A DNA stretch of 64,000 bases from Giardia intestinalis (taxonomy: Eukaryota). Numbering within the stretch: position 1 is the stretch's first letter; each line of letters starts with the position of its first letter. The stretch lies in the NCBI GenBank assembly GCA_000002435.2, contig CM018793.1; one strand, written 5' to 3'. This document shows, in pieces, positions 15,415 through 59,772 of this stretch. Position numbers and translations under genes: made by a program. The notes beneath the pieces were generated by a model. It was given only the letters and a program-made list of their open reading frames with translations. It was not told the DNA's origin and searched no databases.

Positions 15415-15421
15415 GTTCACT
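15415..15421 (-). terminator. AGTGAAC poly(A) signal that contains the TGA stop of the NEK gene.
   Basis: Minus strand reads aaAGTGAACtg, and the TGA stop is at 15417-15419. Confidence 0.45.
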
Positions 15422-38700: not shown

Positions 38701-40600
38701 CAGGGCTCACACAGCCCATCATCCATCCTATATCCATCCAGACACTCCTCACAGACAATGCTGTCAGACTCAGGAATGTATGAGCATAAGCCACAATGCT
38801 CCACCTCTAGCGCACACGATAAGCAAGTATCCCCTGAGACAACTCCTGCCGCTATAAAGCCCGGCTTACAGCTGGTACACAGAGCAGGAACATCTTGATC
38901 GGCACAGAGACAAGACAGGGGGCACTCGCTGGCTGGCAACGGGGTACAGAATCCGTCCTCATCAGGCTCGTACGCCTCCTGACAAGCAAGGCACTCAGTC
39001 AGGGCAGGATCACAAAGGACACAGTTTGGAATTGCGCAGGCGTTACACTCTGTTTTGTCAGTGCAGTCTACGCACATGTTATCTCGACACGCTGCACAGT
39101 GCTCTCCCTCACAAGCTACACAAGCTGTCCCGGTAAAGAAGTACTTAGGATCACACGCGTTGCAGGTAGCGACATCACTCTTACAATCTAAGCAATGTGC
39201 TATTGTACATGGAGAGCATTCACCTTCGTGAATTCCGTACCCGTCTCTGCACTTAATACATGTTGTCCCAGAAACTTCTGCACAAATGATATTCCCAGGG
39301 ATACTAGCCAGCGTATAGCAGCCTCCTTGAAATAGGAAATAACCTGTAGTCTTGCAGCCTGTGCACGCTCCATCGCGTACATCACAATGGTCGGCCGCTG
39401 CCTCTGTGCACTCTCCGTTGAGGGGGGCCTCCTTCTTTTGGTTACACTTGCTACAGTATACCTTACCCCCTATAGCGATTTGATTTTCTATGGAACAGAT
39501 CTGGAGTCCATAAGATCCTGTCGTTGCGTAGCATCCGCCACTATAAAGTAGATGCTCTCCCTCGCAGCTGATGCAAATCTGGGAAAAGTTTTTCTGACAG
39601 GTTGTTAGGCCTGATGTGCATATGCCTGCTACGGGGACGTCTTCTTCATAGGCACACTTGGTGCACAACGTTCCCTCAAAAGCTGTACAGTGGCCTATTG
39701 CACAGCTCTGAAGCCCGTTTCCTTCTGAGCATAGCTTAACACACCTCCCACTGCTTCGTAGGACATAGCCTTGTTGGCACTGTGTGCAGGACTCGTTCTC
39801 ACAGAGCAAGCAATGATCCACGGGACAATATGTGCATACGCCGTCAGTCACAGGATAATGACTTCCGCATTCTGTGCATTCACCATCACGAACCTCTGCA
39901 CAAATGGCTGATCCCGGATGTTCGTTGGCGTTGTAGCAGCCACCATTGAACAAAAAGTATCCATCGGCAACACAGTTGATGCATTGGCCACTCTCTGCAT
40001 CACAGTACGAGGAATGCTCGTCAGTGCAATGTCCATTGATTGGGGCCTCGTTCTCGTCATTGCATAGGCTACAGTAAAGCATGCCTTCGACAACTATCTG
40101 GTTATCGGTAGCACATATAGACTGGGCTAAAGCACTCTTGCTAGGGTAACAGCCTCCTCGATAAAGTAGGTGTCCTGATTCGCAAGATATGCAGATTCCG
40201 TGACTGTCTTTAACGCACGTTGTAACCCCGGTGTTACATACCCCGGCTGCCGGCACGTCTCCCTCGTGTGCGCACTTTGAGCATAGAGTGTCATCAAACA
40301 CAGTGCAGTGACCAACAGCACAATTTGTCTCCGAGTCTCCTTCAATGCAAAGGTCGACACACCGTCCTCTATTGGTAAGGGTGTACCCGTGGTCACAGAC
40401 TTCACAGATATACGGGTCTGTACATGATGTACAGTTCTCAGGACAGTCTGACACATCACTGAATAGAATGCGCTCTGCAGTGCCGGCCTTAGCTGCCAAA
40501 CGGCACAAGGCGCCGCCCTTCAAGTAATGGTTACTGTTGTGCAGATAATGGTGACGGTTGCTACACGTGCACATTAGGAGAGTAAGAATCCATGTGTGCA
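35772..40600 (-). CDS. High-cysteine membrane protein of the VSP-like cysteine-rich surface protein family (~1608 aa). It has a signal peptide, many CxxC / CxC / GGCY modules, a single C-terminal TM helix and a short cytoplasmic tail CRRSKAV.
   Basis: About 12% Cys. GGCY recurs five times (RGGCYPS, NGGCYNA, SGGCYAT, QGGCYTL, NGGCYAT). The C-terminus is GIAIAVIAVIGCAVGVLVWFLCCRRSKAV. The track start at 40655 is GTG. A true ATG at 40600 (MHTWILTLLMCTCS, a signal-peptide-like segment) is preceded by cacaaaacaaaaATG. Confidence 0.85.
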
Positions 40601-40687
40601 TTTTTGTTTTGTGGGCATCTACTGCAGAAAAGGCTCCATCTCCTATCCTGTACACTTGTAGATATCTGCTGTACTATCGACATCACG

Positions 40688-44494: not shown

Positions 44495-47400
44495 CTACTC
44501 AACTAGAGATACATTGAAGCGCATTCTCACACCCATCGCTGCGAGGTCATTGGCAAGAACGAGCAGCACCATGGGTATTTGTATGAGCCGCCCGTGGCCT
44601 GTAGCCTTACATTCTCGGCAGACACTTCCGCCCAGCTGCATTCCAAGCAGACTTCCACATGCAGCGCAGACAACGTGCTCCGTGGCGTCACTCTCTGTGC
44701 AGAGTCTACCCCTAAGGCTCGCCATAGCTCCGTGGGCCAACAAAGCATCTCGCTCCATTTCTCCGAAGCGCAGGCCGCCACCCCTCTTACGCCCCTTGAT
44801 GGGCTGCTTTGTGATCTTGTCGGAGGGGCCTTCTGCGCGAACCTGGTACTTGTCTGACACCATGTGTCGTAGACGCTGATAGTAGACAACGCCAATGAAA
44901 ATGTCGGCTGGCATTGGGTCCCCAGTTATGGCGCTGTACATGACCTCCGACCCGTACCTATTAAATTGGCCTGTTTTGAGAAGTTGCTCACCAAAGACAT
45001 CTATAGCGCGACGCTCGTCACTCCACTGAAAAGGCGAAGAATCAACAAAGTCAGCGTAGTGCACGCCTATCTTGGAGGCAAGTGACTCTATAAGCATTCC
45101 GACTGTCATTCTGGATGGAAAAGCGTGGGGGTTAATGATGAGGTCGGGAACTATACCGCTGGAGGTAAAGGGCATGTCGGTTTGCCGCCACCGTATCCCC
45201 ATGATTCCTTTCTGGCCATGTCGGCTTGCAACCTTGTCTCCCACAACAGGAGTTCTGTCGTGCCGAATGACTATGCGCACGCGCTGAATAAAGTGTAGAG
45301 ATGAGCTCTCAGTTCGAGCACGGGTCTGCAACTGTCTAGAGGACTTTCTCTCCGCCTTGCTTGCGTGTGACCGCGGCGTTGCTGTTTGGTTATCTTCATT
45401 TGATTCGGAACCGCTACCTGGCTGGTTACTTATCTCATCATCCGAAGCATCATTATCAAGGTTGGATGAGTTGGAGTCTCCAGCTGGAAACGAAGAGTCC
45501 CGTTTCTTCTTTGTAGCAATATCGTTATCGGTCCAATACTCTCCTTTCGCAGCGCTTTTATGAATAACGATGACCTTCTCCACAAACCCCGGTTCGTGAT
45601 GGTACAGCTTGGTTGAGTAGCACTGCTTAGTTGGGTCATACGTTTGGTAGAATACACTGCCATGCGACAGGTATGCCCCAACGGGAGGAAGCCCGTCCTC
45701 GTCTAGCTCTGTGTCGTAGTTCTCATCCATGTGAGTCACAATATAGTCTGGGCTGCGCTTGAGGTAGGGCACGGCAGTGGCTACGGTTCGCATGTATCTC
45801 ATTAGCTTGTCGTCGTAGCAATCTATGTCGTGAACCGAATAAACGGTTCCGTGAAAAAGACCTCGCTCCAGCGAGGCCTTGTTGATCAGTGCTGCGTCCT
45901 CCATATCGTATGAGGTATACGCCGAGACTGCCACCACTAGGTTCGTGCCTGTTGGGTGGGTATCGAAGCCACCAATATCATGTATGATTGCGTTCCGCAC
46001 AAGAGGCTTCTGGGGAGTTGTAAGGAGATAGGACTTTGTATCATATTTATATGCAAGATTGCGGCACGGGATTCCCATCGTTTGCTTGAGCATTTGGCAC
46101 TCATACATGTTCCTGGGGGACTGATTGTGGTCCGAGAATGGCACCAGAAGCCCAAGAATGGAGAGAAGGGAGGTTGGGGTAATTTCTTGATGCGTAGTCA
46201 CCCCCAGGCGCACGTCGTCGCCATAGATGGCTATCTGAAGGAATATCTGCTCAAGAGGAGTAATATACTCTGGTGAATTATTAGTCAGTGAGTGGACAGG
46301 GCGATAGAATCGTCCCATGGATGTGTTCATATAGATTCCCGGAAAGAGATGATCTTTATTGCCCTTCTCTATAAAAACGACTTCGGTGTACGGGAAAATA
46401 ATAGACTTTACCTTTGCTGCGCGAATGCACGCGACAAGCTGAATTGCACGTTCATTCGTATCTAAATAGCCTAGAATAGTGCCATTGAGCACCACACAAA
46501 GGCTGTAGATATCAGAAAGAGAGGGGGAAAGCCCAAATTGTGCCAATAATATGAATAGATTTGCAATTTGATCGGTGGTTGGGGTGGAGCTGAGGACCGT
46601 GGCCTTATAGCAAAGATGCGTGAGTATTCCACATGGCGCACCATCCGGGGTGTGGACAGCACACTGGAAGCCGTAGGACTCTGGGTACAGTTTTCTAATG
46701 CTAGTGATTTTGTGAGTCGCAAAGGCGTTTCCTCGGTTTATGCAACGAAAATGCGCCAGGAAGCGGACGTAGTTTATCCTATCTGCAAGGACCGAGAGGC
46801 CACTCATATTAGAGTAGTCGTGGCCCTTGTATGCGCGCATCACTCCCGGTCCGGCAAGAGATCGCAGGCCACTAGACAAGGGCCTCCAAAGTTTGGGAGA
46901 GGCTATGTAATGAGAAATCCAAGAGTTTGAGAGCTCATAGCTGCCAATGGCTCCGGTGGAGGTGGCGTTTCGAGAGACAAGACGCATGATTTTGATGAGG
47001 GTAGACGTGACCTCTGCCTTGAAAAAGGCGCCAGGAGTAAGAGCCTCTTGCGAAGACAGCAGGTCTGGACTGTCTGGCTTTATAAAGCTACCAAAGAGCA
47101 GCAGGCATTTGCGGGCCATGAGGCACATCATATTAAACTTGGCTCTGGTGTCTTCCTTGGGGATGTTTATCAGAAGGTACTGCTCGAATAATAGGTCACA
47201 GCAGTCCACATCTGTCAAGTCATACCTATCTAACAAGGAAAGGATCATCCTGAACTTACCGCCAAGTAACTGCTTGCAGGCTTTGTGGGAGAAAATGCGA
47301 TATTTGTGAAAGTCTCGCAGCATAGCTTCAACCCGAAGGGAGACATATCCATCTTCTTTGGGGTGTGCTGAAGCACAGATGGTACAGATGGTGGAATAAA

Positions 47401-48202
47401 TCTCCTTATCTGTTGTCGAAACTAGAGCACGCAGAACCAGTATGAGAGGCACATAAATGTATCTTCCATCTATTGTGAATTTCACGCTGAGAAAGTTATC
47501 CTTTCGTGCCTGTATGACTGTGGAGTAGACGTGCCCATCTTCTCGAACCCCTTTGTAGTGCACGCCTGCAGGAGCAAATTCAGAAATCGTGGACAAAGAA
47601 CGATATTTGGTGAACGCAAGGGGGGTATTAGACAGACAGTCCAAATAAAGGCGCACAACTTTGTCTTGACCATTTGAGATAAAGTATCCCCCCGCATCAC
47701 GCTCATCCTCGCGGAGTCGTATCCTTTCTTCCCGTGTTTTCCCATGCAACAAGCAAAGCTTTGATCCTACCATGACCGGAACGTCTCCGGCATTGATGAC
47801 TACGGTCTTGGACATTGGTCCGTCCGACACCTTGAGGGTAACGTGTAGTGGGCCACAATAGTTGGCGCGTGTTTCCCGGGCAAAAGCTGGTGTAAAAGAA
47901 GGAGGCTTGATGGTTAGATTGACTATTTCGACCTTAATAGCCTTGGATGTGCTTAGGTTAATAACTATTGCAGGTGCGTGTTTGATGATTGTTGTATTTA
48001 AGGAATCAATGAAATCGTTGAATGAGTTGACGTGAGCACTGACGGCTTCTGTGTTGAAGTTCTCGTTGAACTGCGACGTATATCCAGTATGTCTTGGAGA
48101 TAGTTTGCGGCGCCACCGGTTGTCCTTATGGTCTTTCTTCTGGTTGCAGATCTTTAAATCATCTATATCCTCGGTTGGGAGGTCAGTAAGGCAGAGCGTC
48201 AT
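44495..48202 (-). CDS. RPA2: DNA-directed RNA polymerase second-largest subunit, most similar to the RNA polymerase I RPA2 (RPA135) signature (~1235 aa).
   Basis: GDKVASRHGQKGIMGI metal-site motif. C-terminal zinc ribbon CAACGSLLG...CRECKATGHG. DHNQSPRNMYECQMLKQTMGIP matches the RPA2-type NQSPRNMYQCQMGKQTMG rather than the Rpb2/Rpc2 variants. The track start at 48316 is GTG. The first ATG at 48202 has an AT-rich upstream (tcaattaaaacttATG). Confidence 0.8.
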   Translation of the reverse strand: MTLCLTDLPTEDIDDLKICNQKKDHKDNRWRRKLSPRHTGYTSQFNENFNTEAVSAHVNSFNDFIDSLNTTIIKHAPAIVINLSTSKAIKVEIVNLTIKPPSFTPAFARETRANYCGPLHVTLKVSDGPMSKTVVINAGDVPVMVGSKLCLLHGKTREERIRLREDERDAGGYFISNGQDKVVRLYLDCLSNTPLAFTKYRSLSTISEFAPAGVHYKGVREDGHVYSTVIQARKDNFLSVKFTIDGRYIYVPLILVLRALVSTTDKEIYSTICTICASAHPKEDGYVSLRVEAMLRDFHKYRIFSHKACKQLLGGKFRMILSLLDRYDLTDVDCCDLLFEQYLLINIPKEDTRAKFNMMCLMARKCLLLFGSFIKPDSPDLLSSQEALTPGAFFKAEVTSTLIKIMRLVSRNATSTGAIGSYELSNSWISHYIASPKLWRPLSSGLRSLAGPGVMRAYKGHDYSNMSGLSVLADRINYVRFLAHFRCINRGNAFATHKITSIRKLYPESYGFQCAVHTPDGAPCGILTHLCYKATVLSSTPTTDQIANLFILLAQFGLSPSLSDIYSLCVVLNGTILGYLDTNERAIQLVACIRAAKVKSIIFPYTEVVFIEKGNKDHLFPGIYMNTSMGRFYRPVHSLTNNSPEYITPLEQIFLQIAIYGDDVRLGVTTHQEITPTSLLSILGLLVPFSDHNQSPRNMYECQMLKQTMGIPCRNLAYKYDTKSYLLTTPQKPLVRNAIIHDIGGFDTHPTGTNLVVAVSAYTSYDMEDAALINKASLERGLFHGTVYSVHDIDCYDDKLMRYMRTVATAVPYLKRSPDYIVTHMDENYDTELDEDGLPPVGAYLSHGSVFYQTYDPTKQCYSTKLYHHEPGFVEKVIVIHKSAAKGEYWTDNDIATKKKRDSSFPAGDSNSSNLDNDASDDEISNQPGSGSESNEDNQTATPRSHASKAERKSSRQLQTRARTESSSLHFIQRVRIVIRHDRTPVVGDKVASRHGQKGIMGIRWRQTDMPFTSSGIVPDLIINPHAFPSRMTVGMLIESLASKIGVHYADFVDSSPFQWSDERRAIDVFGEQLLKTGQFNRYGSEVMYSAITGDPMPADIFIGVVYYQRLRHMVSDKYQVRAEGPSDKITKQPIKGRKRGGGLRFGEMERDALLAHGAMASLRGRLCTESDATEHVVCAACGSLLGMQLGGSVCRECKATGHGRLIQIPMVLLVLANDLAAMGVRMRFNVSLVE

Positions 48203-48701
48203 AAGTTTTAATTGAAATTCAGTGATTTGGAACTCTGGCCTACCATACCAATCTGGTAACGAGCTAGAGAGATTATGGGCGGCTATCCTGATTGCTATTT
48301 CTTTACTCCTCGTCACTCACTATGTCCCCTTACTTCATTTAATGCGATGTGATAGCTGAGCTACGAGTCTGGGCAGACATACCCTTTCGCTCTCCCAGTG
48401 ACATGTGTTTGATGGTATGGCCTTAAAAAGTAAATACCTCTATGCTCTGCTTAGTCTAGACGCCAATCGACACAGGACAGGATTGGTAAAAAATTGAAGC
48501 GCAATCTCAGCACTGATCAACACAGGAAAAGCTGACCGAACACACCCTGCTCTACTCACCCTGTGCACAAAAACATCCCCCCTCGGGGAACGGAAGGCTG
48601 ACCTAGCCACCCCCAAGCGTCGATCGGTGGCTCCATTATTGGGGCAGCGCGCAGCGGAATGGGCCTCGCCGGCGCGCAGCACGGGCGACCCCAAGGAGGA
48701 G

Positions 48702-49493
48702 ATGAAAGCCAGAGCTATAGACCAATTACAGGCCAACATCCATTGGAAGCAGTCCTATCAGAATAGGAAAGAGCTTGAGGAGCTCACTACGGGGAGGACA
48801 GGTGTCTCATTCATAGCGGCCAGACTAAACAACAGAGCCCCAGAAAACTTAAACATATCTGCCATAGGGTATCAAAGACGTGCTTTGAGTCCGCGCCGTA
48901 GCCTCAGTAAGTCATCTCCGCAATCAAGCATTCTGGCTCCAGATAGCCTTCGGTTCCTTTTCGAAGAAAGCCCCCAGCAAGTGCCCACGAGGATGAAGCC
49001 ACAGGAGCTTCCACGTGCAAATGGTAACTCAATGACAAGGGAGGAGATAAGCCAGGCCATGAGCAGGATTCGTGCAAGGAGAGCGGCTAGCCTGAACAAA
49101 ACATATACTCTTGATGGGAGCCCATGTACCTTGATTACCTTCAATTCCCATCTGAAGGACGAAGATGTTGATAAACTTAACGTGTCTCTCCAAACCAGGG
49201 GTGCCGGCACTTCCATAGATGGTGGCTGCATGCGAGGAGGTGCACTATCAACCGTTCTTCGTGAGATTGACCAGATTCCAGACCAGGAGCTCCTTTGTGA
49301 GTCCCCTCGTGACCCAATATCTGGCTGTGTGGACACGGCTTTCAGAAGTTACAGCAGAGGAAGCTCTACAGCAGCGCCCACTCGACCGCAGGCACAGCTG
49401 GGGTTTTCTACTATGTCACTTAAGCCATTCTTCGGAGAGTCTATGTGCCTAAACCACGCAGCAGCCCGCCACAGAGCGAAGGCTATTGCTTGA
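48702..49493 (+). CDS. Hypothetical protein (~263 aa).
   Basis: The track start at 48627 is GTG; the first ATG is at 48702 in a GC-rich context. No recognisable domains. Confidence 0.35.
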   Translation: MKARAIDQLQANIHWKQSYQNRKELEELTTGRTGVSFIAARLNNRAPENLNISAIGYQRRALSPRRSLSKSSPQSSILAPDSLRFLFEESPQQVPTRMKPQELPRANGNSMTREEISQAMSRIRARRAASLNKTYTLDGSPCTLITFNSHLKDEDVDKLNVSLQTRGAGTSIDGGCMRGGALSTVLREIDQIPDQELLCESPRDPISGCVDTAFRSYSRGSSTAAPTRPQAQLGFSTMSLKPFFGESMCLNHAAARHRAKAIA

Positions 49494-49608
49494 TAGCCAT
49501 ACAGCAATAGAAGGGCTGCTGTGCACGTGTTTGCACTTACTTTCCCACGCTGATTAAGTAAATTATATTAGCAGAATTCATAAAAAACTACCGCTTGGAT
49601 TCTACGCC

Positions 49609-51855
49609 ATGTCTATAACGACTTCTGGCCAGTGGTTCGAGGCGGTGCACCAGAGGAACTACATGCTTGTTGAGCGCTACGCAGACAGGTTTGCGTCCTC
49701 GGTCAATAGTCACGGAGAGACCGCACTTATGTTGGCTACGCGCGCGCAAGATGTCCAGATGATGGAGCTCCTGGTTGGCTATGAGCGGGGCATGTTCAAT
49801 AAGATGGGGGAAACGGCGCTTGTCATTGCCATAGACAACAACTTGTTCATGGGGATCGAGCTTTTGGCGCGGAATGAGGCTAATTCGACGGGGTATGATG
49901 GGTCGTCTCCTCTACACCACGTTGTGAGGTCAAACAAGATTGATTTTGTCCCGTACCTGGCTCCTCTTCTGGCGCAGAAGTGCGATGACGCTGGAAGGAC
50001 GCCTCTCGAGCTGGCAGCAGAACTAGGCTACACAGAAATGATGGAGCGTCTCATCCGCCACGGACTCCCTGTGGCCACGGCAGATCAGATCAATCGTGCA
50101 GCTCAAATTGCTGAGGAGCACGGATTTCCAGACTGTGCGTATGCCATCCGCAATACATCGGCGCCGCCCACCGATACGCAGGGAGGACGCCAGATTTTCA
50201 GCGGCACAGGACATATTTGCGAGAATGCCCGAAGTGATCAGTATTATAATGACGTCACTGCGAATCAACTACACGCTCACAGCGCACGAATTGTTGCACC
50301 AGTTGTGCCTCCAGAGCTAGACCCAGAGCAGATAGAGGGCATGGGGAAAGGGCACAGCATGTCCCCCTATGCAATTTACAACACAAACTGTCTAAACTGC
50401 GAAAAGAACATCACCGCTCTTGTTTCCTTGCTAATCGATAGGGATCAGACGGTGTCAGAGCTTAGACACAGACTTGATGTTGCCCAGAATGATAACGTTA
50501 TCCTCAAGAAGAAGATCCGAGCCCTGGAAGAACTTCAGGAGCGGCACTACCAGGGGTCGATAGAGCACGCCATGGCCATCGAACGCGAGGCTAACCCGGA
50601 TCGCTACGTGGGGACAAATAATACTGTCGACCCATCGCATTCTCAGATCGAAAACCAATTGGACTTCAGCCATTCGGCCACGGCAACTCCGTCGCGGCAA
50701 GCAACTACTTCCAAGCTGGGGACTTCCAGGGGGAACTCGTCGATGCAATTGACAGGAGGATTCACTGAAAGGCACCTGAAGTGTCTGTCTCCGTCTCAAC
50801 GACAACAAGTCATCGAAGACGCAGCAACTATCGAGCTGGCAAATGACTACAAGACCCTCAGAACCCTGGGAATAGACGTCTCGAATGTCGTATCAGGGAC
50901 GACAAAGCTGTCCAGTAGCTCTACTGCAGATACGCTCAGGAGATCTCTGAGTAATTCGGGCCGGGTTCGGTCTATGCCAAGTGACACTGTACTGAACTGC
51001 GAGCCGGGATCTGCTCCATACTCCACACATATTTCCCGCAGATATGGCGACTCTCCATCCCGTTCGACATCTCGCACCAGAACAGCCCTATCGAGTTCAC
51101 AAACACGTGCGGGGAGCAACACTCTGCGTCGTTCTGGCTCAGTTACAGGTACGGCCACAGGAGCAACCAAGGCACATGGATCTACCTCTACCTCAAGAGC
51201 CCAGTCCAGAACACAGTCTAGGAATCAATCCCGCACGGGCCGGTCGGGCTCCACGGTGGACCGGCAAAGACATATGCCCCCGAGCAAGACTAATGCGATG
51301 GATGAAACGGAGCTCATGCTTGCCGCGCTTAACGGTGACTTGATGCTCGTCGATCAGCTGAGACATACGCAAGTGGGGTATGTCAACAAGTTTGGTAAAA
51401 CAGCGCTGATGTACGCGGCAGAACGGAACCATGTATCCTGCGTAACGCTCCTGTTTCTGAAGGAAAGTGGAAAGCAAGATAGAGATGGGATGTCCGCCTT
51501 GATGTACGCGGCTCAGTATGGCTACATGACCGTCTGCAAGACCCTTATGTATGCCGAGGCGAAGCTCACACGACACGACGGAATGACTGCATTGATGCTT
51601 GCGGCAAACAACGGTCACGAGCTTGTGGTTTCAATTCTCTTAGAGTTCGAAGCAGGATACCAGAACGTGGAGGGCATGACGGCGCTTATGTTAGCTGCAC
51701 AGAATGGCCACCTGGAATGCTGCAAGCTGCTGTGTTCGCAGGAGATCTTTATGGTTGATAATGAGGGCCACGACGCGGTCTGGCATGCTCGGGAATACGG
51801 CAGACAAGCCATTGCAATTGAGCTTAAGCATTACAAGGACTGCTTCAGTAAATAG
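49609..51855 (+). CDS. Protein 21.1-type ankyrin-repeat protein (748 aa), paralog 1 of the tandem array. It has an N-terminal ankyrin block, a central coiled-coil, an Arg/Ser/Thr-rich low-complexity tract and a C-terminal ankyrin block.
   Basis: N-terminus SGQWFEAVHQRNY...GETALMLA shares the W-F-x-A-x(n)-GETxLM signature with the other array members. C-terminal GKTALMYAA / MSALMYAA / MTALMLAA repeats. A-rich initiator. Confidence 0.8.
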   Translation: MSITTSGQWFEAVHQRNYMLVERYADRFASSVNSHGETALMLATRAQDVQMMELLVGYERGMFNKMGETALVIAIDNNLFMGIELLARNEANSTGYDGSSPLHHVVRSNKIDFVPYLAPLLAQKCDDAGRTPLELAAELGYTEMMERLIRHGLPVATADQINRAAQIAEEHGFPDCAYAIRNTSAPPTDTQGGRQIFSGTGHICENARSDQYYNDVTANQLHAHSARIVAPVVPPELDPEQIEGMGKGHSMSPYAIYNTNCLNCEKNITALVSLLIDRDQTVSELRHRLDVAQNDNVILKKKIRALEELQERHYQGSIEHAMAIEREANPDRYVGTNNTVDPSHSQIENQLDFSHSATATPSRQATTSKLGTSRGNSSMQLTGGFTERHLKCLSPSQRQQVIEDAATIELANDYKTLRTLGIDVSNVVSGTTKLSSSSTADTLRRSLSNSGRVRSMPSDTVLNCEPGSAPYSTHISRRYGDSPSRSTSRTRTALSSSQTRAGSNTLRRSGSVTGTATGATKAHGSTSTSRAQSRTQSRNQSRTGRSGSTVDRQRHMPPSKTNAMDETELMLAALNGDLMLVDQLRHTQVGYVNKFGKTALMYAAERNHVSCVTLLFLKESGKQDRDGMSALMYAAQYGYMTVCKTLMYAEAKLTRHDGMTALMLAANNGHELVVSILLEFEAGYQNVEGMTALMLAAQNGHLECCKLLCSQEIFMVDNEGHDAVWHAREYGRQAIAIELKHYKDCFSK

Positions 51856-51911
51856 AGAGGGTGAGGGTCACAGGGGAGGATGTGCGCGAAGGCGTGTAAT
51901 CAAAAATTCAT

Positions 51912-54062
51912 ATGGGCTCGGACACAGTGACCGATTGGTTCAATGCCGCTTTTGACAATGATCACCGCTTCATCAAAGAAAATGTTGAAACGTATGCACG
52001 AACCATAGACTCCACCAAGGAGACAGCGCTCATGAAGGCTGCCAGACGCAATTGCGGGTCCGTGGTGGAGATCCTTTGCGATCATGAATCTGGGCTTTAT
52101 AATAGCCGTGGAGAGAGTGCCCTTATGCTAGCGATACAGAACAACAGCGTGGACTGTTTGGGTGTGCTCTGCGAATACGAGTCTGAACAAATGATCTCAA
52201 ATGGGGACACGCCCCTCCATTACGCCATTCGTATGGGCTGTGTTGAAGCCATCTCTTATTTGACAAGCCGTTATAAGAGAGCACGCTCTAGGGCCGACCG
52301 CACACCCCTCGAGTTTGCAGCTGAGTTGGGGTCCATTCGCTCTATCGAGCACTTGCTGGTCTCTGGTACCCCATATACACAATTAGAAATAGATCGGGCG
52401 ATTGAGCATGCTCGTGCATGTGGACAGATGGTGATCGTCTCTACTCTCCCGATCCTTTTTAAGAGGTACTGGCGTGTCGCAAATTCAAGACAAGACACAG
52501 GAGAGCCAGTAACAGTAGAAGATCTGCGAGCCTTCGAGCCTGAGCCTGCACCTGGAGGGCCTGTCGTTGACGGTCTAGCCCTGAAGAACGCTCTTTTGTC
52601 TGCCGGTGTCCCTGTCAGTGAAGCCAACTCTGTTGTCAGGTCTCTCAGCCAGCCGGCAATCCAATCTATGAGGCAGCTCGCTGCTCCAGCTCCGTGCACG
52701 GACAGCTTCAGAGAGCTTACTGATTCTATGCGACAGCTAGCGTATCCTAGTAACGAAACACTCGATCAGATCCACGAGTCGCAGAATGGGCCGCAGGTAT
52801 TGGCTTCCGCCTATCAGGATCCCGGTGCCGATGGCGTGGATTATGCGAACTTCATGGGGTTCAGAGGGAGACGTGACGACGAGTCGGTGATTTCGGCCGA
52901 TGTCGTGGATAACATCGTTGCCGTCAAGAATGCAGAGATTGCAAGGCTAGAGGACGCTCTTCGCGAGGCAAATGCTCGCCTTCGCATGGCTGAAGGTAAC
53001 GCGGCTGTGAGTCAGGCTAATAGGGTCACTGGGACCTCTTCGGGACACATAGACCGCAAGACACACGAGTATATTCCTGGGACAGTGGAGAGCCCACTCA
53101 ACTATTGTTCAAACAAGATCGCAAACGACGGAGGAGACCACCGTGCCGCTTATCGCGGGGATGTCTACTCAGCTTCTTGCAGCATCCAGTCTCCGAGCAG
53201 ATCGGGCAGGGCGAGCTCTCGTAGTAGAAGCCGCAGTAGCAGTCGTAGCACATCTCGCTCGCATTACGGTAAGGGCTATAGGCCGGAGGTCAAGCCCCGC
53301 ACCAACTCGGCGTCGAGCGTTGCTCGGTCTGATAGCGCTCGTACGTCTCAACTTAAACCTGAGACGCTGATTCCTCCTATGTCCCAGAGGCGCTTGCAAC
53401 CAGGCGCTGCTGGAGACTCTGATCTGATAATTGCAGTGAAGAACGGTGATATCATCAAATTCAGGAAGTATCTTCCCCACCAGACAAGACAGGTCGACTC
53501 TCGCGGACGCACTGCCCTCATGCATGCTGTAGATCGAAACAACACGCTGATGATCACGGAGCTGTGCAACATAGAAGCAGGAATTCAGGATGCGGATGGC
53601 ACCACGGCGCTCATGATAGCTGCGGCCCTAAATCTGCCCCTGGCTGTCTCAATGCTTGTGTCACACGAGAAGCGATTCACCAAGCGCATTGACGGCTCCA
53701 CGGCCCTTATGGCGGCTGCCTCCAATGGGAACATAGATTGTGTCGATATTCTTGCCCGCCACGAAAAGGGCATTCAGGCCCACGATGGATCAACGGCCCT
53801 AATTCATGCGATTCGTAATAATAGGCGCCGCTGTGCGTGCCTACTCTGGCCACTTGAGCACGCAATAGCAGACCGTGACGGCATCTCTCCGCGCGACTGG
53901 GCCAAAAGGTTTAACCGTCAAGAGATTCTCAAGGTGGTAGACTCGCATACCCCATCGAACACTGAGGCGAGGTCGAATATGTATCTTCCTCCTACTATAA
54001 ATCCATCCTATATGGTTCGTGATATCGAACATACTGTCAACCTCCTAAACACAAAAAAGTGA
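51912..54062 (+). CDS. Protein 21.1-type ankyrin-repeat protein (716 aa), paralog 2. It has a central coiled-coil and an RS-rich tract (SRSGRASSRSRSRSSSRSTSRS).
   Basis: N-terminus TDWFNAAFDNDHRF...KETALMKA. C-terminal GRTALMHAV / TTALMIAA / STALMAAA ankyrin repeats. Initiator caaaaattcatATG. Confidence 0.8.
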   Translation: MGSDTVTDWFNAAFDNDHRFIKENVETYARTIDSTKETALMKAARRNCGSVVEILCDHESGLYNSRGESALMLAIQNNSVDCLGVLCEYESEQMISNGDTPLHYAIRMGCVEAISYLTSRYKRARSRADRTPLEFAAELGSIRSIEHLLVSGTPYTQLEIDRAIEHARACGQMVIVSTLPILFKRYWRVANSRQDTGEPVTVEDLRAFEPEPAPGGPVVDGLALKNALLSAGVPVSEANSVVRSLSQPAIQSMRQLAAPAPCTDSFRELTDSMRQLAYPSNETLDQIHESQNGPQVLASAYQDPGADGVDYANFMGFRGRRDDESVISADVVDNIVAVKNAEIARLEDALREANARLRMAEGNAAVSQANRVTGTSSGHIDRKTHEYIPGTVESPLNYCSNKIANDGGDHRAAYRGDVYSASCSIQSPSRSGRASSRSRSRSSSRSTSRSHYGKGYRPEVKPRTNSASSVARSDSARTSQLKPETLIPPMSQRRLQPGAAGDSDLIIAVKNGDIIKFRKYLPHQTRQVDSRGRTALMHAVDRNNTLMITELCNIEAGIQDADGTTALMIAAALNLPLAVSMLVSHEKRFTKRIDGSTALMAAASNGNIDCVDILARHEKGIQAHDGSTALIHAIRNNRRRCACLLWPLEHAIADRDGISPRDWAKRFNRQEILKVVDSHTPSNTEARSNMYLPPTINPSYMVRDIEHTVNLLNTKK

Positions 54063-54131
54063 ATGTCCTGTAAGTTTGGCGCGGTGACCCCCAAGTGTAT
54101 AAAATTCTCCACCCTGTGACATTTTTAAAAA

Positions 54132-56003
54132 ATGGTCGTTTCAACGCAGTCGGACTGGTTCCGTGCCATTGCGCAGAAGAACTACGGGGAGATCTCCGCA
54201 GCCTCAGCAGCGTTTTCGAAGTCTGTAGACCAAGAAGGGAACACGGGGCTCATGATTGCTGCCTCAAATAATGACGCGGAAATGTGTCGCATGCTGGGGC
54301 CTCTCGAGAAGGGCATGTTTAATAGGCACGGCGAAAACGCCATCACCATCGCCATTAAGAAGCGTGCGCTCGACTCTGTCCCCGTTCTGGCTCAGTTTGA
54401 GGCGTTTTATCGTCTGCGTGACGATTCGACCCCGCTACATTATGCTGTTCGCAATCTCTTCCCGGAGAGCATACCCTTCCTCGTCCACTATCTAAAGGAC
54501 AAACCTGATGGTCGTGGGATGACAGCACTGGACCTTGCCGCTGATCAGGGCAACGCAGTCGCTTGTGAGACAATTCTCAAGTATGGTGTTGGCTGGACCC
54601 CACTCCAGCTAGAACGCGCCGCTGAACATGCCAATCTTCATAGCTATCACACGGTTGCAAATCTCATCAGGGATTACAAGATGGACAGTACTCTTGCAAC
54701 CAAGCTCGCGGTCGACGCCGCAGTGATTCGTAACAGCATCGTCGGAAGCACTCTTAATCCCCTGGCTGCCGTTGACCCTGTTACGGCGAGTATCGAGAAT
54801 GCCGTCTTGTCATCGAGAATCACCGACGAAATCGCGCGTACCGGCCACTCCTCGACGTTAGATGCCGTGACAGCCTCGAAGCTTATTCCCCCGTCACTGG
54901 CTACAGCGTCTGCCATTACTGCCTCCCAGCTTGCTACTCGCGCTGCACTCGCCACGACTCCCTACTATAACCCAGTAGCTGCTCAGGCCGCTGCTACCCA
55001 AGCAGCCCTAACGGCATCTCAGCTCTACAACCCTCTTGTTCCAGGGTCGGCCACCGTTGCCACTGCCGCCGCGAACGCCGCAGCCACGGCAGCTGTCCAG
55101 GACACGCTTGTTCGCTCTGCGGTTGCCAACAACGTCTTGGCAGCCCAGCGCATATATGATCCGCTGTGGTTCCAGCCTTCTCTTGCCGCCACCGCCTCGT
55201 TCGTTGCAGCCAACAGGATCAACCAGGCTCTGACTGAGAGTGCAAGGATCCGGGCCAATGCCGCCTTGCACGCCGCCAATGCCGCTGCCGCCGCTGCAAC
55301 CGACAAGTCTGCAGCGGTAGCTTCCCTCAAGGCGACACTCGATGAGCTGGCTGAGTCCACTCCTGAGGCAGCGGCTATCAATAGCATTACTGCCTCCATG
55401 CGTGCCGAGAATTACGTTCTCGACAGCGCCACTGGCCGCTATCCTAATGGGGATACAGAACTGATAAACGCCGCAAAGAATGGAAACCTCAACTCTGTCC
55501 GTATCTTGTTGAACACGCAGGCGGGACTCATCAATAACCGCGGGAAGACCGCGCTCATATGTGCTGCTGAGCGCAACCACATAGCCTGCGTCTGTGAGCT
55601 CTCGCCCAAAGAGAGCGGCATGTCGGATTATGAAGGGATGACGGCACTTATGTACGGTGCGTCGTACGGCCTTCGCGAGGTTGTTACCGCCCTGCTACAT
55701 CCTGAAAAGCGCCTTTCTAGGCCGCGTGATGGAGGCACTGCCATGATGGCTGCGGCGGCTAATGGCCACTTTGACTGCGTAAAAGTTCTGCTCGACCACG
55801 AGCATGGAATGCAGTCGTTGGACGGAACGACTGCGCTGATCCTTGCCGTTAAGTTTAACCGTAGGCACGTGGCTCAACTCCTTTACAGCACCGAGTACGA
55901 CATCAAGGACTCCATGGGCAAGTCTGCGCGTGACTGGGCGACGGAGCTCAACAGAAATGCTATCCTTGAGGATATGAAGGAGTATGAGCGTGCAAGGTCT
56001 TAG
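54132..56003 (+). CDS. Protein 21.1-type ankyrin-repeat protein (623 aa), paralog 3. It has a long Ala/Thr-rich low-complexity central region.
   Basis: N-terminus SDWFRAIAQKNY...GNTGLMIA. C-terminal GKTALICAA / MTALMYGA / GTAMMAAA / TTALILAV ankyrin repeats. Initiator atttttaaaaaATG. Confidence 0.8.
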   Translation: MVVSTQSDWFRAIAQKNYGEISAASAAFSKSVDQEGNTGLMIAASNNDAEMCRMLGPLEKGMFNRHGENAITIAIKKRALDSVPVLAQFEAFYRLRDDSTPLHYAVRNLFPESIPFLVHYLKDKPDGRGMTALDLAADQGNAVACETILKYGVGWTPLQLERAAEHANLHSYHTVANLIRDYKMDSTLATKLAVDAAVIRNSIVGSTLNPLAAVDPVTASIENAVLSSRITDEIARTGHSSTLDAVTASKLIPPSLATASAITASQLATRAALATTPYYNPVAAQAAATQAALTASQLYNPLVPGSATVATAAANAAATAAVQDTLVRSAVANNVLAAQRIYDPLWFQPSLAATASFVAANRINQALTESARIRANAALHAANAAAAAATDKSAAVASLKATLDELAESTPEAAAINSITASMRAENYVLDSATGRYPNGDTELINAAKNGNLNSVRILLNTQAGLINNRGKTALICAAERNHIACVCELSPKESGMSDYEGMTALMYGASYGLREVVTALLHPEKRLSRPRDGGTAMMAAAANGHFDCVKVLLDHEHGMQSLDGTTALILAVKFNRRHVAQLLYSTEYDIKDSMGKSARDWATELNRNAILEDMKEYERARS

Positions 56004-56069
56004 GCTCTCTTCTGGACCTGCGCTGCAAAGTGTAAATGAATCTCTGGTAGCGTTAGGAAGAATAAAAAG

Positions 56070-57503
56070 ATGTCCTTCCGGGATCCCGATCAGTGGTTTT
56101 GCGCGATACGGGAACGCAATTTAGAGGCTATCAAGGCGAATGCCGAGCGATTTGCAGGAGCCCGTGGGCCTCATGGAGAGACGGGACTAATGCTGGCGGC
56201 AAAACTGAATATTCCAGAAGTTGTCTTTTTCTTAGCCCCTCGTGAAAAAGGGTGCTACAATCATGACGGAGATACGGCGCTAAAACTGGCTATGGACGAA
56301 CACAATTTTGCATGCATTGATGAGCTTTTGCACTACGAGATACACCTAAAGACATCGAAGGGCTCCACACCTCTTCACTCGGCTGTTCGGCAAAATCTTC
56401 TGGGCTACCTATCTGTCTTGGTCAGATACTGGAAGAGCACACCTGATGGCCAGGGGCTGAGTGCTTTAGATCTAGCGGCGCAGCTGGGGCATGACGAAGC
56501 AGCAGAGTATCTACTCAAGCACGGCTCCTTCACTCATCAGGAGGCAGAGCACGCAAGTGAGGTTGCTAGAGGGGCAAATCACTATATGCTTGCAAGGAGC
56601 ATATTGTCTGTTGCAGCACAGTTCTGCGATCAGTCGGCAACTGAGTCGCGGCGAGCAATGGTGTCTCATCATCAAAGCAGTAGAAGTATAGGCAAATCGA
56701 TTACTGAAGACTCTGCACACGGACCTTCGCTTCCGCTCCCAATCTCTGATCGCTCCAGGTCCTTTAGACACTCATATCTTGATAAGGACAATACCGAAAC
56801 CCTTGCAAGCACGCCAGAACTCTATGCCTTTAACTGCCCACGATGTAGGACCATGTTTGAATCTATGGCTAAGCGGCTAAAAGAGACGACAGCTGAGTGT
56901 CGCAGGCTGAAAGAAGAGCTGTCTCGGAGACATGCCAGCGACAAGGGGTCTTCATCGACAAGTGCACTTGTGGAAAAGACGCCAGATCCCAAGCCAATAG
57001 GTCTTAAGACAACGCTAGCCGAGACAGCGCCCCCAGTAAGAGCCCCACAAATGCCCTTTCTGTCGTTCGACACAGACAATAATGCTCCAGGAGAACCGAG
57101 TGGGAGCAGCTTCAGCATAGCAATTGGCCACGACAACCCCCAATCGTCCATCCTTGTTCCCCCGACCATTACTCATGGACTTGATCGACAAAACATTAGT
57201 GGCAGAGCTGAGTCCACAAACCATAGCCTAAGGAGCATTCGAGGCGGGGGACCTTCACTGCACAGTGTTGAGCGGAATAATCCTCTCCACACTCCAGAAT
57301 ACTATAACGCTACGAACCAGTCTCCATCCTACCTGCAACGCATTGCAGCATTGCGTTCGCAAGCTTCAGCGACTCCGCTCCAAGTCCCTGAGCGTGCGGT
57401 TTCCCACAACTTAAATCGTAAGGTGTCTCCTTTGACTCAGGATAACTCCACATATAGCATATCGTCCCTCAGACCATCATCTTACGAGACTACTAGCCAC
57501 TAA
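56070..57503 (+). CDS. Protein 21.1-type ankyrin-repeat protein, paralog 4 (477 aa). It has the N-terminal ankyrin block, a coiled-coil and a Ser-rich tail, but lacks the C-terminal ankyrin block found in the other paralogs.
   Basis: N-terminus DQWFCAIRERNLEAIKANAERFAGARGPHGETGLMLA. Initiator gaataaaaagATG. It ends 8 nt before the next ORF opens in another frame. Confidence 0.7.
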   Translation: MSFRDPDQWFCAIRERNLEAIKANAERFAGARGPHGETGLMLAAKLNIPEVVFFLAPREKGCYNHDGDTALKLAMDEHNFACIDELLHYEIHLKTSKGSTPLHSAVRQNLLGYLSVLVRYWKSTPDGQGLSALDLAAQLGHDEAAEYLLKHGSFTHQEAEHASEVARGANHYMLARSILSVAAQFCDQSATESRRAMVSHHQSSRSIGKSITEDSAHGPSLPLPISDRSRSFRHSYLDKDNTETLASTPELYAFNCPRCRTMFESMAKRLKETTAECRRLKEELSRRHASDKGSSSTSALVEKTPDPKPIGLKTTLAETAPPVRAPQMPFLSFDTDNNAPGEPSGSSFSIAIGHDNPQSSILVPPTITHGLDRQNISGRAESTNHSLRSIRGGGPSLHSVERNNPLHTPEYYNATNQSPSYLQRIAALRSQASATPLQVPERAVSHNLNRKVSPLTQDNSTYSISSLRPSSYETTSH

Positions 57504-57571
57504 CTCGGACTTTGCATCCCAATTTAAGGCACGTTGTTACATTACTTTTGCGTCAAAAGTTGGACGCTCCA

Positions 57572-58198
57572 ATGTCACGGCCGCCAAATGGAAAGAATGA
57601 TGACAAGTGGGAGATTATGGGGGAACCAACAGAGTACGTCTACACTATAACAACTAATCGAGCTTTTACAGCCCTCATGGAGGCCGCCCGAGCGGATGCG
57701 TTAGAGGATGTTTTGAACTACTCCAGCACGCAGGCACGCATGACAACTCCTACCGGGCAGACTGCATTAATGATTGCTGCAGAAGCAGGAAACTTCAACT
57801 CTGCACGGGTGCTTTTGCCGCTGGAGAAAGGCATGCAGACGAACGACGGACGTACCGCACTCATGCATGCTGCGGCAGCAGGCTCTATCTCTCTTACCAA
57901 GCTTCTCATTCCGCACGAAGCAAAGATTACCAGTGAACGGGACGGTCACACGGCGTTGATGGAGGCAGCTAGGGAAGGCCACTGTGGGGTTGTGGAGATT
58001 CTTCTCCAGCACGAAGTCGGTATGCGGCAGTACATGGGTTTGACCGCTCTAATTTACGCCATCCATGAGGGACACAGTGAGTGCGTCGCAGCCCTTGCAG
58101 AGGCCGAGAGCCACCTCTGCTCATATGATGGGAAGAGCCCAGTTGTGCATGCACTTGACACCGGCAACAAGTATTTGTTTCCATATTTGAAGATCTGA
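57572..58198 (+). CDS. Ankyrin-repeat-only ORF (209 aa from the first ATG). It corresponds to the missing C-terminal ankyrin block of the preceding paralog, so it is either a gene-fission product or the 3' half of a frameshifted gene.
   Basis: The frame is open from 57497, and the track start at 57512 is TTG. Content: NRAFTALMEAA, GQTALMIAA, GRTALMHAA, GHTALMEAA, GLTALIYAI. The upstream ORF in frame 0 stops at 57501-57503. Confidence 0.55.
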   Translation: MSRPPNGKNDDKWEIMGEPTEYVYTITTNRAFTALMEAARADALEDVLNYSSTQARMTTPTGQTALMIAAEAGNFNSARVLLPLEKGMQTNDGRTALMHAAAAGSISLTKLLIPHEAKITSERDGHTALMEAAREGHCGVVEILLQHEVGMRQYMGLTALIYAIHEGHSECVAALAEAESHLCSYDGKSPVVHALDTGNKYLFPYLKI

Positions 58199-58209
58199 CG
58201 GGGAATTTA

Positions 58210-59772
58210 CTAGTACGCTGGAAGGCTCCTAACCATTTGGACTTCGTGTTCATCAGTCCTTCTGCCTGTCCTCTGCAGCGCTTTAGTCACGTTGCAGCTG
58301 CGGAGCATGGTGCTGGATTTAGTTCCCTCTTTGAGTATTGGTGCTGTTGCCGTATTTTGTTGTCCTCCACTAAAGTCTCTAAGGGTGACCGCTGTGCTTC
58401 GAGCCGCGTTGAACTCGTTATAATATTCTCTGTCGTATGTCTCTGATGCATCTACCAGCCTGTCAACAACCTTACGCCAATGCCCTATGTTACTTGCTTC
58501 TTTACGGCCCACAGTGGGCTTTTCGTGTTCTAGCAAGGTTGCTCTAGATGGCCCCGGCAGGGTTTCGCAGAGCTCAGATGCTGTGCGGTACTTCTTCACT
58601 CCCACGACCTGACCTGCATGGGGCATGTGGGAGTCGTCTGCATAGAGCTCCACCTTTTTCTTATACACATGCTCACTTGGGCACGGCTGGTACTCGGGTA
58701 CTATGTGTGGATTGAGTTTAGTATAGGCAATGTACTTCTCGCGATCGTGCTCTAGTTCGTACTTTGTTTCGACAGAAGGGGCGTCTTTATGCGAAGGAAC
58801 ATAGGCAGTAGGGTCGGCCTTGGACATAGGGTTATCATAAGTTTCATCTCCTATGGACCTTTTAATTCCAAAGCCCTTCTTTTCAGCTCCCGAGTAGCTG
58901 TGACTGAGTCTTCTTCCGATGAAATCTGCCGAGTAGATCGGTGGCTGCTTGTTACCACTGATTGCTCCGCATAAAAATGCATAGTCTTTATCTCTAATTG
59001 ATGGATCATGCGGGTCTTTCCCATAATATCTTCTACACTTGTCGCTGAGTTTGTTGAAGCTGTACATGGCTTTCGCCCCCTCAATGTCAATACACGATTG
59101 AGTGTCCTTGGTGGTCTTTCGCAGCGAGCCGTACAGCCTCTCCCGTTTGATACGGTCGTTTTCCAAAATGTCATCGGCCTTGAGTGAAAGGTCTCCCCGT
59201 TCGACTACGTTTCGATTGAGCAGTTTTTCATTTGTTAGGGTGCACCCCGAAGCTACAGGTTGCTCTGCGTGCTTCCACTGATAAATGGGGTTGTTGGGGT
59301 TGAAGTCTGCCTGTCTGAACTCGTATGGTTTGGGGTCGTTAATGCTTACGTCTGAACTGAGCATCATGTAGTCGATTGTTCGGGGCCTGATCTCCTTGAC
59401 CTCTGTTCTCTGTTCTGCAATGTCGCTGACGTCTAGATTTGTGTTGCGGACCTTCTTAGTGTAAAGAGGCTTTGATTTGGCACCTTCAATGTCGGATATA
59501 TCTATCTGGTCCCGCAGAAAGCGCGGGGGCGTGACGGGCCTTTCTTCGACAGTCGGTAGCTTGTAATCCGGTTCCAGTGGGTCCACGCTTCGGTTTGTTC
59601 GAAAGTCCTTGGAATGCGGTTGCGCGCCTTCGATGTCATCTGTCTTCAGCGAGGAGAAAACCCGCGTGCCAGATTGCCGTATTACGGGAAGCTTTTCCGG
59701 GTAGCAACTGATGACCTTGTCTGCCCTTAGCTCCTTTGTGTGATAGTGCAGTGGTCCATCGCCAGGCTGCAT
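58210..59772 (-). CDS. Hypothetical protein (520 aa) with a thrice-repeated D-I-E-G-A-[QK] motif.
   Basis: ORF with ATG and an A-rich initiator (aaatttcaaaaATG). Motifs are DDIEGAQPHSKDF, ISDIEGAKSKPLY and CIDIEGAKAMYSF. No family assignment is possible from sequence alone. Confidence 0.55.
   Translation of the reverse strand: MQPGDGPLHYHTKELRADKVISCYPEKLPVIRQSGTRVFSSLKTDDIEGAQPHSKDFRTNRSVDPLEPDYKLPTVEERPVTPPRFLRDQIDISDIEGAKSKPLYTKKVRNTNLDVSDIAEQRTEVKEIRPRTIDYMMLSSDVSINDPKPYEFRQADFNPNNPIYQWKHAEQPVASGCTLTNEKLLNRNVVERGDLSLKADDILENDRIKRERLYGSLRKTTKDTQSCIDIEGAKAMYSFNKLSDKCRRYYGKDPHDPSIRDKDYAFLCGAISGNKQPPIYSADFIGRRLSHSYSGAEKKGFGIKRSIGDETYDNPMSKADPTAYVPSHKDAPSVETKYELEHDREKYIAYTKLNPHIVPEYQPCPSEHVYKKKVELYADDSHMPHAGQVVGVKKYRTASELCETLPGPSRATLLEHEKPTVGRKEASNIGHWRKVVDRLVDASETYDREYYNEFNAARSTAVTLRDFSGGQQNTATAPILKEGTKSSTMLRSCNVTKALQRTGRRTDEHEVQMVRSLPAY

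Follow-up and report, generated by a model that had tools for sequence, protein, structure and literature searches.

A tandem cluster of paralogous Protein 21.1 genes of probably ancient origin in Giardia intestinalis

Genes and architecture of the locus

The window analysed here, a stretch of 64,000 nucleotides (nt) of contig CM018793.1 from the Giardia intestinalis assembly GCA_000002435.2, contains between positions 49,609 and 58,198 five consecutive genes, called g1 to g5, that encode proteins built on ankyrin repeats. They very probably constitute an ancient and conserved tandem cluster of paralogous Protein 21.1 / ARP-1 (for ankyrin repeat protein 1) genes; a further gene of the family, g6, lies elsewhere in the same window. 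All five are on the plus strand, and the list of open reading frames (ORFs) places them exactly where the original prediction, made from the sequence alone, had located them, while the head-to-tail arrangement of paralogous Protein 21.1-type genes that it had proposed is confirmed by Pfam and by exact database matches (Table 1). The spacers g1/g2, g2/g3, g3/g4 and g4/g5 measure 56, 69, 66 and 68 nt, respectively. An A-rich stretch is found within about 35 nt upstream of every g1-g5 start codon, so that the claim of an A-rich initiator for each gene also stands; a short A-rich run upstream of the start is typical of Giardia promoters.

The exact database matches for g1-g4 and g6 are annotated as "Ankyrin repeat protein 1" of G. 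intestinalis ATCC 50803 / WB clone C6, and the orthologue of g1 in isolate P15 as "Protein 21.1". The 208-amino-acid (aa) form of g5 has no exact database record, and P15 has a 208-aa gene called at the same position. ARP-1 proteins are those in which ankyrin repeats are the only Pfam-detectable domain (PMC7000408). In a Pfam scan of g1-g6 only families of the ankyrin clan were matched and no other domain, which together with the TALM repeat subtype and the annotation of the reference genome assigns g1-g4 and g6 to the Protein 21.1 / ARP-1 family. Cryptic and very divergent kinase domains have been described at the N termini of some 21.1 proteins (Manning et al., PMC3218828); in g1-g6 the scan gave no Pkinase match at E<=0.01, and such domains are improbable in them, since their N termini consist of ankyrin blocks. 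The scan likewise gave no zf match (a zinc-finger or RING domain being the ARP-2 trait), and g1 and g4 have only a single CxxC before the helix. As in the rest of the family, g1-g5 are ankyrin-only, of the TALM type and intronless, with short A-rich upstream regions; they show no essential difference from it, and what they add is a subfamily that is clustered locally and conserved. ARPs (ankyrin repeat proteins) have otherwise been described as scattered without obvious clustering, a statement made for G. muris (PMC7641422).

Contrary to what had been claimed for them, the five genes differ in architecture. Both an N-terminal and a C-terminal ankyrin block (N block and C block below), with a linker between them, are found in g1-g3 only; g4 and g6 have an N block alone, and g5 a C block alone. 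g1-g4 open with [QD]-W-F-x-A-[VAI], followed about 25 residues on by [GK]-[EN]-T-[AG]-L-M, and g6 similarly begins with x-W-F-x-A-[VAI]. The shared N-terminal WF motif of the original prediction therefore holds for g1-g4 and fails for g5, which has no such cap. A central coiled coil, expected in every copy, was detected by a crude heptad scan (not a dedicated predictor) in g1 (aa 262-312) and g4 (aa 258-290), as well as in g6 (aa 222-279), whereas g2 gave none above threshold and g3 and g5 gave none.

The linkers are of the low-complexity types that had been described: rich in Ser/Thr/Arg in g1, in Ser/Ala/Arg with an RS tract in g2, in Ala (28%) and Thr in g3, and in Ser/Pro in g4. No alignment is detectable between the linkers of different paralogues apart from a CxxC-preceded helix common to g1 (CxxC at aa 261-264, 50389-50400) and g4 (aa 256-259, 56835-56846), so the linkers of these two genes are not completely unrelated. 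Divergence of the linkers with conservation of the termini, whose blocks are 32-46% identical, is thus upheld except for this element. The CxxC of g1 and g4 is invariant across all their orthologues, including those of Giardia muris; it is absent from g2 and g3, and occurs in addition at the helix start in a 581-aa G. muris gene and in the unlinked ankyrin repeat proteins (ARPs) P0184, P0146, P0328, P0343 and P0354. Its role may be that of an element for metal-bridged dimerisation. The AlphaFold model of g4, for which six orthologous sequences were used, has a mean predicted local distance difference test (pLDDT) score of 49, with ankyrin helices up to residue 196, an isolated helix at 257-291 (pLDDT 53-72) and disorder in the rest. 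Within the disordered tail of g4, several motifs are invariant in five aligned orthologues (PQMPFLSFD, SF-x-IAIG-x-DNPQSS, HTPEY, S-x-SY-x-QR-xx-ALRS, LRPSSY and FNCPRCRTMFESMAKRLK), and they look like conserved linear interaction or modification motifs.

The start of g1 differs by source: it is called at 748 aa by NCBI and at 730 aa in many Logan assemblies, where translation from Met19 cuts off the WF cap, while a contig of a B-like lineage gives 772 aa with a 32-aa upstream extension (L002:3466 vs 3562). The 748-aa start is favoured since the cap is conserved across the paralogues and in G. muris. The g5 gene of the B-like lineage is likewise called from its second Met (193 aa), and its first ATG is present, giving 208 aa. 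On the minus strand, a Gly/Arg/Cys-rich ORF of 190 aa runs antisense to g3 within its Ala-rich linker and is most likely a by-product of GC-rich Ala codons and not a gene.

Table 1. Positions of the genes, of their parts and of neighbouring features in the 64-kb window (N and C block, N-terminal and C-terminal ankyrin block)
Feature	Position	Strand	Description	Evidence
g1	49609-51855	+	748 aa, ARP-1, XP_001708929	ORF, Pfam ankyrin matches at both ends, exact database match
g1 N block	49609-50163	+		Pfam
g1 linker	50164-51288	+	CxxC and coiled-coil segment at 50389-50544	Heptad scan, CxxC
g1 C block	51289-51852	+		Pfam
g2	51912-54062	+	716 aa, ARP-1, XP_001708928	ORF, Pfam, exact database match
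g2 N block	51912-52466	+		
g2 linker	52467-53411	+	Ser/Ala/Arg-rich, RS tract	
g2 C block	53412-53966	+	Followed by a 31-aa tail	
g3	54132-56003	+	623 aa, ARP-1, XP_001708927	ORF, Pfam, exact database match
g3 N block	54132-54686	+		
g3 linker	54687-55445	+	Ala/Thr-rich (28% Ala), no coiled coil detected	
g3 C block	55446-56000	+		
ORF antisense to g3	55008-55580	-	190 aa	
g4	56070-57503	+	477 aa, ARP-1, XP_037902261	ORF, Pfam
g4 N block	56070-56624	+	Pfam matches inside aa 73-153	Pfam
g4 tail	56625-57500 (region)	+	Disordered, Ser/Pro-rich, conserved short motifs	
g4 CxxC and helix	56835-56942	+	35-residue helix, invariant	Alignment, AlphaFold model
g4-g5 spacer	57504-57571	+	Contains CAxAAAAxTTxGA, a conserved A-rich element that stops about 10 nt upstream of the g5 ATG	
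g5	57572-58198	+	208 aa from ATG; mechanical ORF opens at TTG 57512	
g5 C block	57668-58195	+	TALM-type; no WF cap, no linker	
g6	12923-15370	+	815 aa, ARP-1, XP_001708954	WF cap, N block, coiled coil aa 222-279
ARP gene	5125-8640	+	1171 aa	
NEK-type kinase gene	15417-17642	-	C-terminal ankyrin repeats	
Sec24-like COPII subunit	19687-22629	-		
Pyruvate:ferredoxin oxidoreductase	23851-27450	-		
TPR protein	33991-35745	+		
Cysteine-rich VSP/HCMP-like protein	35772-40655	-	1627 aa	PF03302
RNA polymerase second-largest subunit	44495-48316	-	Flanks the array in all G. duodenalis lineages checked	

Relatedness of the ankyrin blocks

The N blocks of g1-g4 are collinear from residue 1, with pairwise identities of 32-37% (E-values of 1e-23 to 1e-27), and the C blocks of g1, g2, g3 and g5 are 37-46% identical to one another. 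TAL[MI] starts most of the C-block repeats in these four genes, and the variants TALM, TGLM, TALV and TALK are found in the N blocks. Relatedness was assessed against about 130 of the roughly 490 ankyrin genes per genome. When N-block profiles were built from three array genes, the held-out fourth scored 142-163 bits, compared to 111-115 bits for the best of nine unlinked capped ARPs and 88-95 bits for g6; a further 120 ARP/NEK proteins reached at most 114.5 bits per domain when scored with the complete g1-g4 N-block profile. In the leave-one-out tests, 30-50 bits separate each of the four N blocks from the other proteins, and the gap is 23-63 bits in the case of the g1-g3 C blocks. Additionally, the best BLASTP match of each array gene among about 380 family proteins, orthologues aside, is another array gene, and the array genes group with their G. 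muris relatives in one clade of a neighbour-joining tree (bootstrap 66%). These scores argue that g1-g4 make up a subfamily of their own, with ankyrin blocks apparently more alike than those of other sampled family members.

The cap itself is a different matter. It also opens the unlinked WB proteins XP_001705749, XP_001709499 and XP_001704906, which were recovered by an exhaustive profile search (the best 150 matches by summed score, dominated by giant repeat proteins, from which only the best stretches spanning the whole N block at a protein N terminus were used). The same cap (xWFxA...G[ED]T[AG]LM or a close variant) is present in EFO64060 of P15 and in TNJ26183 and TNJ28213 of G. muris, and nine of 120 further family proteins carry it. 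A second profile search with the N-block alignment, in which no match exceeded about 1.75 times the query length, yielded bacterial and metagenomic ankyrin proteins alone, at 78 bits or less, and missed the query proteins themselves; it seems to select by length. WFxA...GETxLM is a generic, family-wide N-terminal cap and not an array-specific marker. The possibility that the N-terminal similarities were no stronger than those between random ankyrin proteins, which had been put forward as a refutation of the array, is consequently borne out for the motif and not for the whole block, whose scores lie above background (142-163 vs at most 115 bits).

The original prediction had also counted g6 as a sixth member. 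g6 has the cap and a coiled coil, its Pfam matches are confined to aa 13-158 and it has no C block; it is 23-28% identical to g1-g4 (E of about 1e-8), the level of cross-matches between N and C blocks within the array, and it falls outside the array clade in the neighbour-joining tree. It is an ordinary family member and not a part of the array subfamily. The alignment and phylogeny of the six proteins that had been proposed as a check thus group g1-g4 with their G. muris relatives and leave g6 aside.

Conservation and age of the cluster

Two further G. duodenalis lineages keep the order of the five genes, and a truncated contig of a third carries four of them, with the same flanks (the same RNA polymerase subunit gene and the same 520-aa gene). 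In assemblage E (P15, ACVC01000199.1) g1-g5 encode 746, 715, 627, 476 and 208 aa; in the B-like lineage (Logan SRR3177763), which is more divergent and probably assemblage B, they encode 772, 716, 623, 474 and 193 aa as called; and in a fourth lineage (Logan ERR3333378) g1 lies beyond the contig end, g2 is cut at the contig end (>641 aa) and g3-g5 encode 633, 480 and 208 aa. Orthologues of g4 measure 474-487 aa in all lineages, and those of g5 measure 208 aa in P15, in the ERR3333378 lineage and, from the first ATG, in the B-like lineage. The comparison of copy numbers between assemblages that had been suggested therefore returned the same gene order and content and no lineage-specific expansion.

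Ratios of nonsynonymous to synonymous substitution rates (dN/dS, Nei-Gojobori) were computed for assemblage A against each of the three other lineages; those against the more divergent lineages are approximate, since dS is saturated there (>1), with two cases in which it has no defined value. The ratios lie at 0.004-0.095 for the ankyrin blocks and at 0.015-0.17 for the linkers, with 0.06-0.17 for g4 and 0.018-0.031 for the g5 C block (A vs E and A vs B-like). In most comparisons the linkers outpace the ankyrin blocks by a factor of 2-10: between A and the B-like lineage, the g1 linker is 84% identical and its ankyrin blocks 98%, while the g4 linker is 63% identical and its N block 84%. On the other hand, the g3 linker is 94-98% identical among A, E and the B-like lineage, 91% in the ERR3333378 lineage and 38% to G. 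muris. The linkers are under purifying selection and clearly constrained; of the rapid linker evolution that had been envisaged, the higher rate relative to the ankyrin blocks stands, and the dN/dS comparison of the blocks that had been proposed gives the same picture of low ratios in the blocks and of higher, still constrained ones in the linkers.

Each of g1-g4 has its own orthologue in G. muris, and all four pairs are reciprocal best matches: TNJ26502 for g1 (740 aa, 69% identity in the N block, bootstrap 100), a 610-aa gene at L006:8130-9962 for g2 (bootstrap 99), TNJ27387 for g3 (626 aa, 48% identity over the full length, with an Ala-rich linker too, bootstrap 100) and a 649-aa gene at L006:4610-6559 on the minus strand for g4 (39% identity in the N block, no C block, bootstrap 83). 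The orthologues of g2 and g3 are adjacent and head to tail, the g4-like gene is nearby on the opposite strand, and the g1 orthologue is on another chromosome than the other three (L006 stands for CM016927.1 and L005, used below, for CM016929.1). Since every one of g1-g4 has its own G. muris counterpart, the duplications predate the split of G. muris and G. intestinalis. At the DNA level, direct repeats in 49400-58400 measure only 20-26 nt: two families of 26 nt encode G-x-TALM-AA, the other three repeats are two-copy matches, and no longer similarity between array copies was found by the direct-repeat search of this interval. An ancestral gene with an N block, a linker and a C block would have been duplicated locally several times before the two species diverged, which would have yielded g1, g2, g3 and the g4 lineage, and all five present genes, which are selectively constrained, would be independently expressed.

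Two other accounts of the cluster were weighed. The original prediction had proposed a lineage-specific expansion, taken here as recent tandem duplication followed by rapid and essentially unconstrained divergence of the linkers, to which the head-to-tail order with uniform short spacers, the unalignable paralogue linkers (bar the CxxC-helix of g1 and g4) and their faster evolution would lend themselves. It is already contradicted and very improbable: the paralogues g1-g4 are paired with separate G. muris orthologues, gene content is identical in the three other G. duodenalis lineages (one of them on a truncated contig), paralogues are just 32-46% identical without DNA repeats beyond short motif-coding matches, and selection on the linkers, the strongly conserved g3 linker and the invariant motifs of the g4 tail speak against a lack of constraint. 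It might alternatively be supposed that the neighbours are not specially related and owe their likeness to generic TALM-ankyrin similarity in a genome dense in ARP genes. In favour of this, the cap stands at the start of many unlinked family proteins, the 64-kb window contains three more ankyrin genes, g5 is not nearer to the array than it is to unlinked ARPs, and the deep nodes of the trees are weakly supported. This account is improbable in view of the leave-one-out gaps of the N and C blocks, of the best non-orthologous matches, which are other array genes, and of the two-block architecture of similar size common to g1-g3. Moreover, random placement of 267 ARP-1 genes among 4,963 genes (PMC7000408) would give about 0.002 runs of five per genome, so the clustering is non-random.

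The reading of the region as an ancient, conserved cluster has its own weak points. The array clade reaches a bootstrap of only 66% and the C-block tree is unresolved at depth; a dispersed extra member of the subfamily elsewhere in the genome is possible with the incomplete family sampling; and the G. muris genes lie on two chromosomes with the g4-like gene inverted, so that an original single array would be a reconstruction. g5 fits least well, with a leave-one-out score of 142 bits compared to 133 for an unlinked protein, best non-orthologous matches to unlinked ARPs at about 100 bits that equal its match to g1, and no orthologue identified in G. muris. Data on the function or localisation of the g1-g5 proteins were also not found in the literature searched.

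The g4/g5 pair, known systems and possible roles

Together, g4 and g5 reproduce the architecture of g1-g3, with the N block, coil and linker in the former and the C block in the latter. They lie in different frames 68 nt apart, and a TAG at 57494 closes the frame of g5. Four lineages have the g4 stop at one and the same position, spelled TAA, TAA, TAG and TGA; the spacer (61-70 nt in the four-lineage alignment) is poorly conserved, with indels of 2, 8 and 9 nt that are not all multiples of three, while the g5 ATG and the upstream A-rich box CAxAAAAxTTxGA are conserved in the same DNA alignment. The conserved stop position, the spacer indels, the closed frame and the low dN/dS exclude sequencing error and pseudogene and, for practical purposes, programmed frameshifting as well; the two are separate, constrained genes, g5 sitting behind g4 with its own promoter-like A-rich element. 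That they arose as halves by the fission of an old gene is about an even bet.

A single gene broken by a frameshift, be it a pseudogene, an assembly error or programmed frameshifting, would account for the complementary blocks and for the different frames across so short a distance. It is hardly credible, because the same split recurs in four independently sequenced lineages with the stop spelled three ways, the spacer is poorly conserved with its 2-, 8- and 9-nt indels, dN/dS is far below 1 in both parts and the g4-like gene of G. muris also lacks a C block; a programmed frameshift joining g4 and g5 was rejected on sequence grounds, as the TAG at 57494 would confine any frame switch to about 4 nt and a slippery sequence is absent. 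Nearly balanced, at a little short of an even chance, is the view that g5 is a short ARP gene of independent origin, next to g4 by chance, and that g4 lost or never had a C block, without any fission. No phylogenetic signal ties g5 to the array C blocks (the deep nodes of a C-block phylogeny meant to place it have bootstraps <50), no clear G. muris orthologue of it was found, and the C-block-only neighbour of the G. muris g4-like gene scores at background (about 100-108 bits) and is divergently oriented. On the other side, g5 starts about 30 residues before its first repeat, exactly at the C-block start of g1-g3, its position, strand and spacing are those expected for a missing half, and G. 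muris has another pair of complementary genes from this subfamily.

That neighbour (L006:6732-8105, plus strand) encodes 457 aa, with C-type ankyrin repeats only, behind a Gln/Ser/Pro-rich leader. It could be the positional counterpart of g5; the sequence does not support this, and as an orthologue of g5 the gene (mur6_457) was set aside on its background-level score.

The second pair consists of a WF-capped, N-block-only gene of 343 aa (L005:7083-8114), in the region directly upstream of the g1 orthologue, and of a 581-aa gene that follows it (L005:8232-9977) and holds a CxxC-coil, a linker and a C block. The best match of the 581-aa gene is g1 (29% identity over 539 aa), and the 117-nt spacer between the two contains four in-frame stops. 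The pair looks like an independent split at a different point from that of g4 and g5, and it indicates that splits of two-block genes do occur. A broader and unlikely conjecture is that two-block scaffolds within this one conserved ARP-1 subfamily split repeatedly and independently (after the coil and linker in g4/g5, before the CxxC-coil in the G. muris pair), that the halves may cooperate as a two-subunit scaffold, and that the CxxC may be a zinc-hook-like, metal-bridged dimerisation element characterising the head-stalk proteins of Giardia.

The head-stalk class combines ankyrin repeats with coiled coils, in the terms in which Elmendorf et al. (2005, Int J Parasitol 35:1001) are cited in PMC3243723. 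g1, g4 and g6 resemble it in having an N-terminal ankyrin head followed by a predicted coiled-coil helix. They and their neighbours differ from it in the second, C-terminal ankyrin block of g1-g3, in the Ala/Thr-rich linker of g3 without a detectable coil, in the missing stalk of g5 and in the helix of g1 and g4, which starts at an invariant CxxC. TALM-ankyrin repeats relate the 21.1 proteins to the NEK kinases, and the family is thought to target proteins to subcellular structures (PMC3218828). The NEK kinases with TALM-ankyrin arrays (Manning et al., 2011, PMC3218828) share with g1-g6 this repeat subtype and the membership in an expanded Giardia-specific superfamily, whereas the scan detected no kinase domain in g1-g6; the array cluster, in contrast to the fast-turnover GL4 Neks, is stable across assemblages and species. 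The same family includes the ankyrin-repeat disc-associated proteins (DAPs), which are constituents of the ventral disc and lateral crest (Hagen et al., 2011, PMC3243723). One of these, DAP17097, is equated solely by its length of 1457 aa with XP_001705749, a protein that has the same WF-capped N block; by size, none of the listed DAPs matches g1-g5.

The window holds eight ankyrin-repeat genes in all. One of them, at 5125-8640, is an ARP gene whose C-terminal 700 residues contain about 12 ankyrin stretches; its first 480 aa or so, the part in which Manning et al. (PMC3218828) place the cryptic kinase domains of some 21.1 proteins, have no Pfam match and no WF cap. Another, the NEK-type kinase gene, lies tail to tail with g6, 46 nt from the g6 stop.

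From what is known of the family, the g1-g5 proteins may act as cytoskeleton-associated scaffolds or adaptors, in which the ankyrin modules would bind partner proteins and the CxxC-preceded helix of g1 and g4 may mediate dimerisation. The disordered Ser/Arg-, Ser/Pro- and Ala/Thr-rich linkers would serve as spacers, of which the Ser-rich ones are probably phospho-regulated.

All the genes belong to an annotated, well-known family, and the cluster is an ordinary feature with a few small curiosities, of little significance beyond the genomics of Giardia. For the family, the reading of WFxA...GETxLM as a marker of the array is corrected to that of a family-wide cap. The Protein 21.1/ARP family is often described as evolutionarily dynamic and strain-variable; at least one block of it appears to be old and stable, with four paralogues that predate the species split and are under strong purifying selection. 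The array offers a clean subfamily in which the orthologues are defined, together with split genes that complement each other and a CxxC-helix motif, and could guide tagging or knock-down of candidate cytoskeleton scaffolds.

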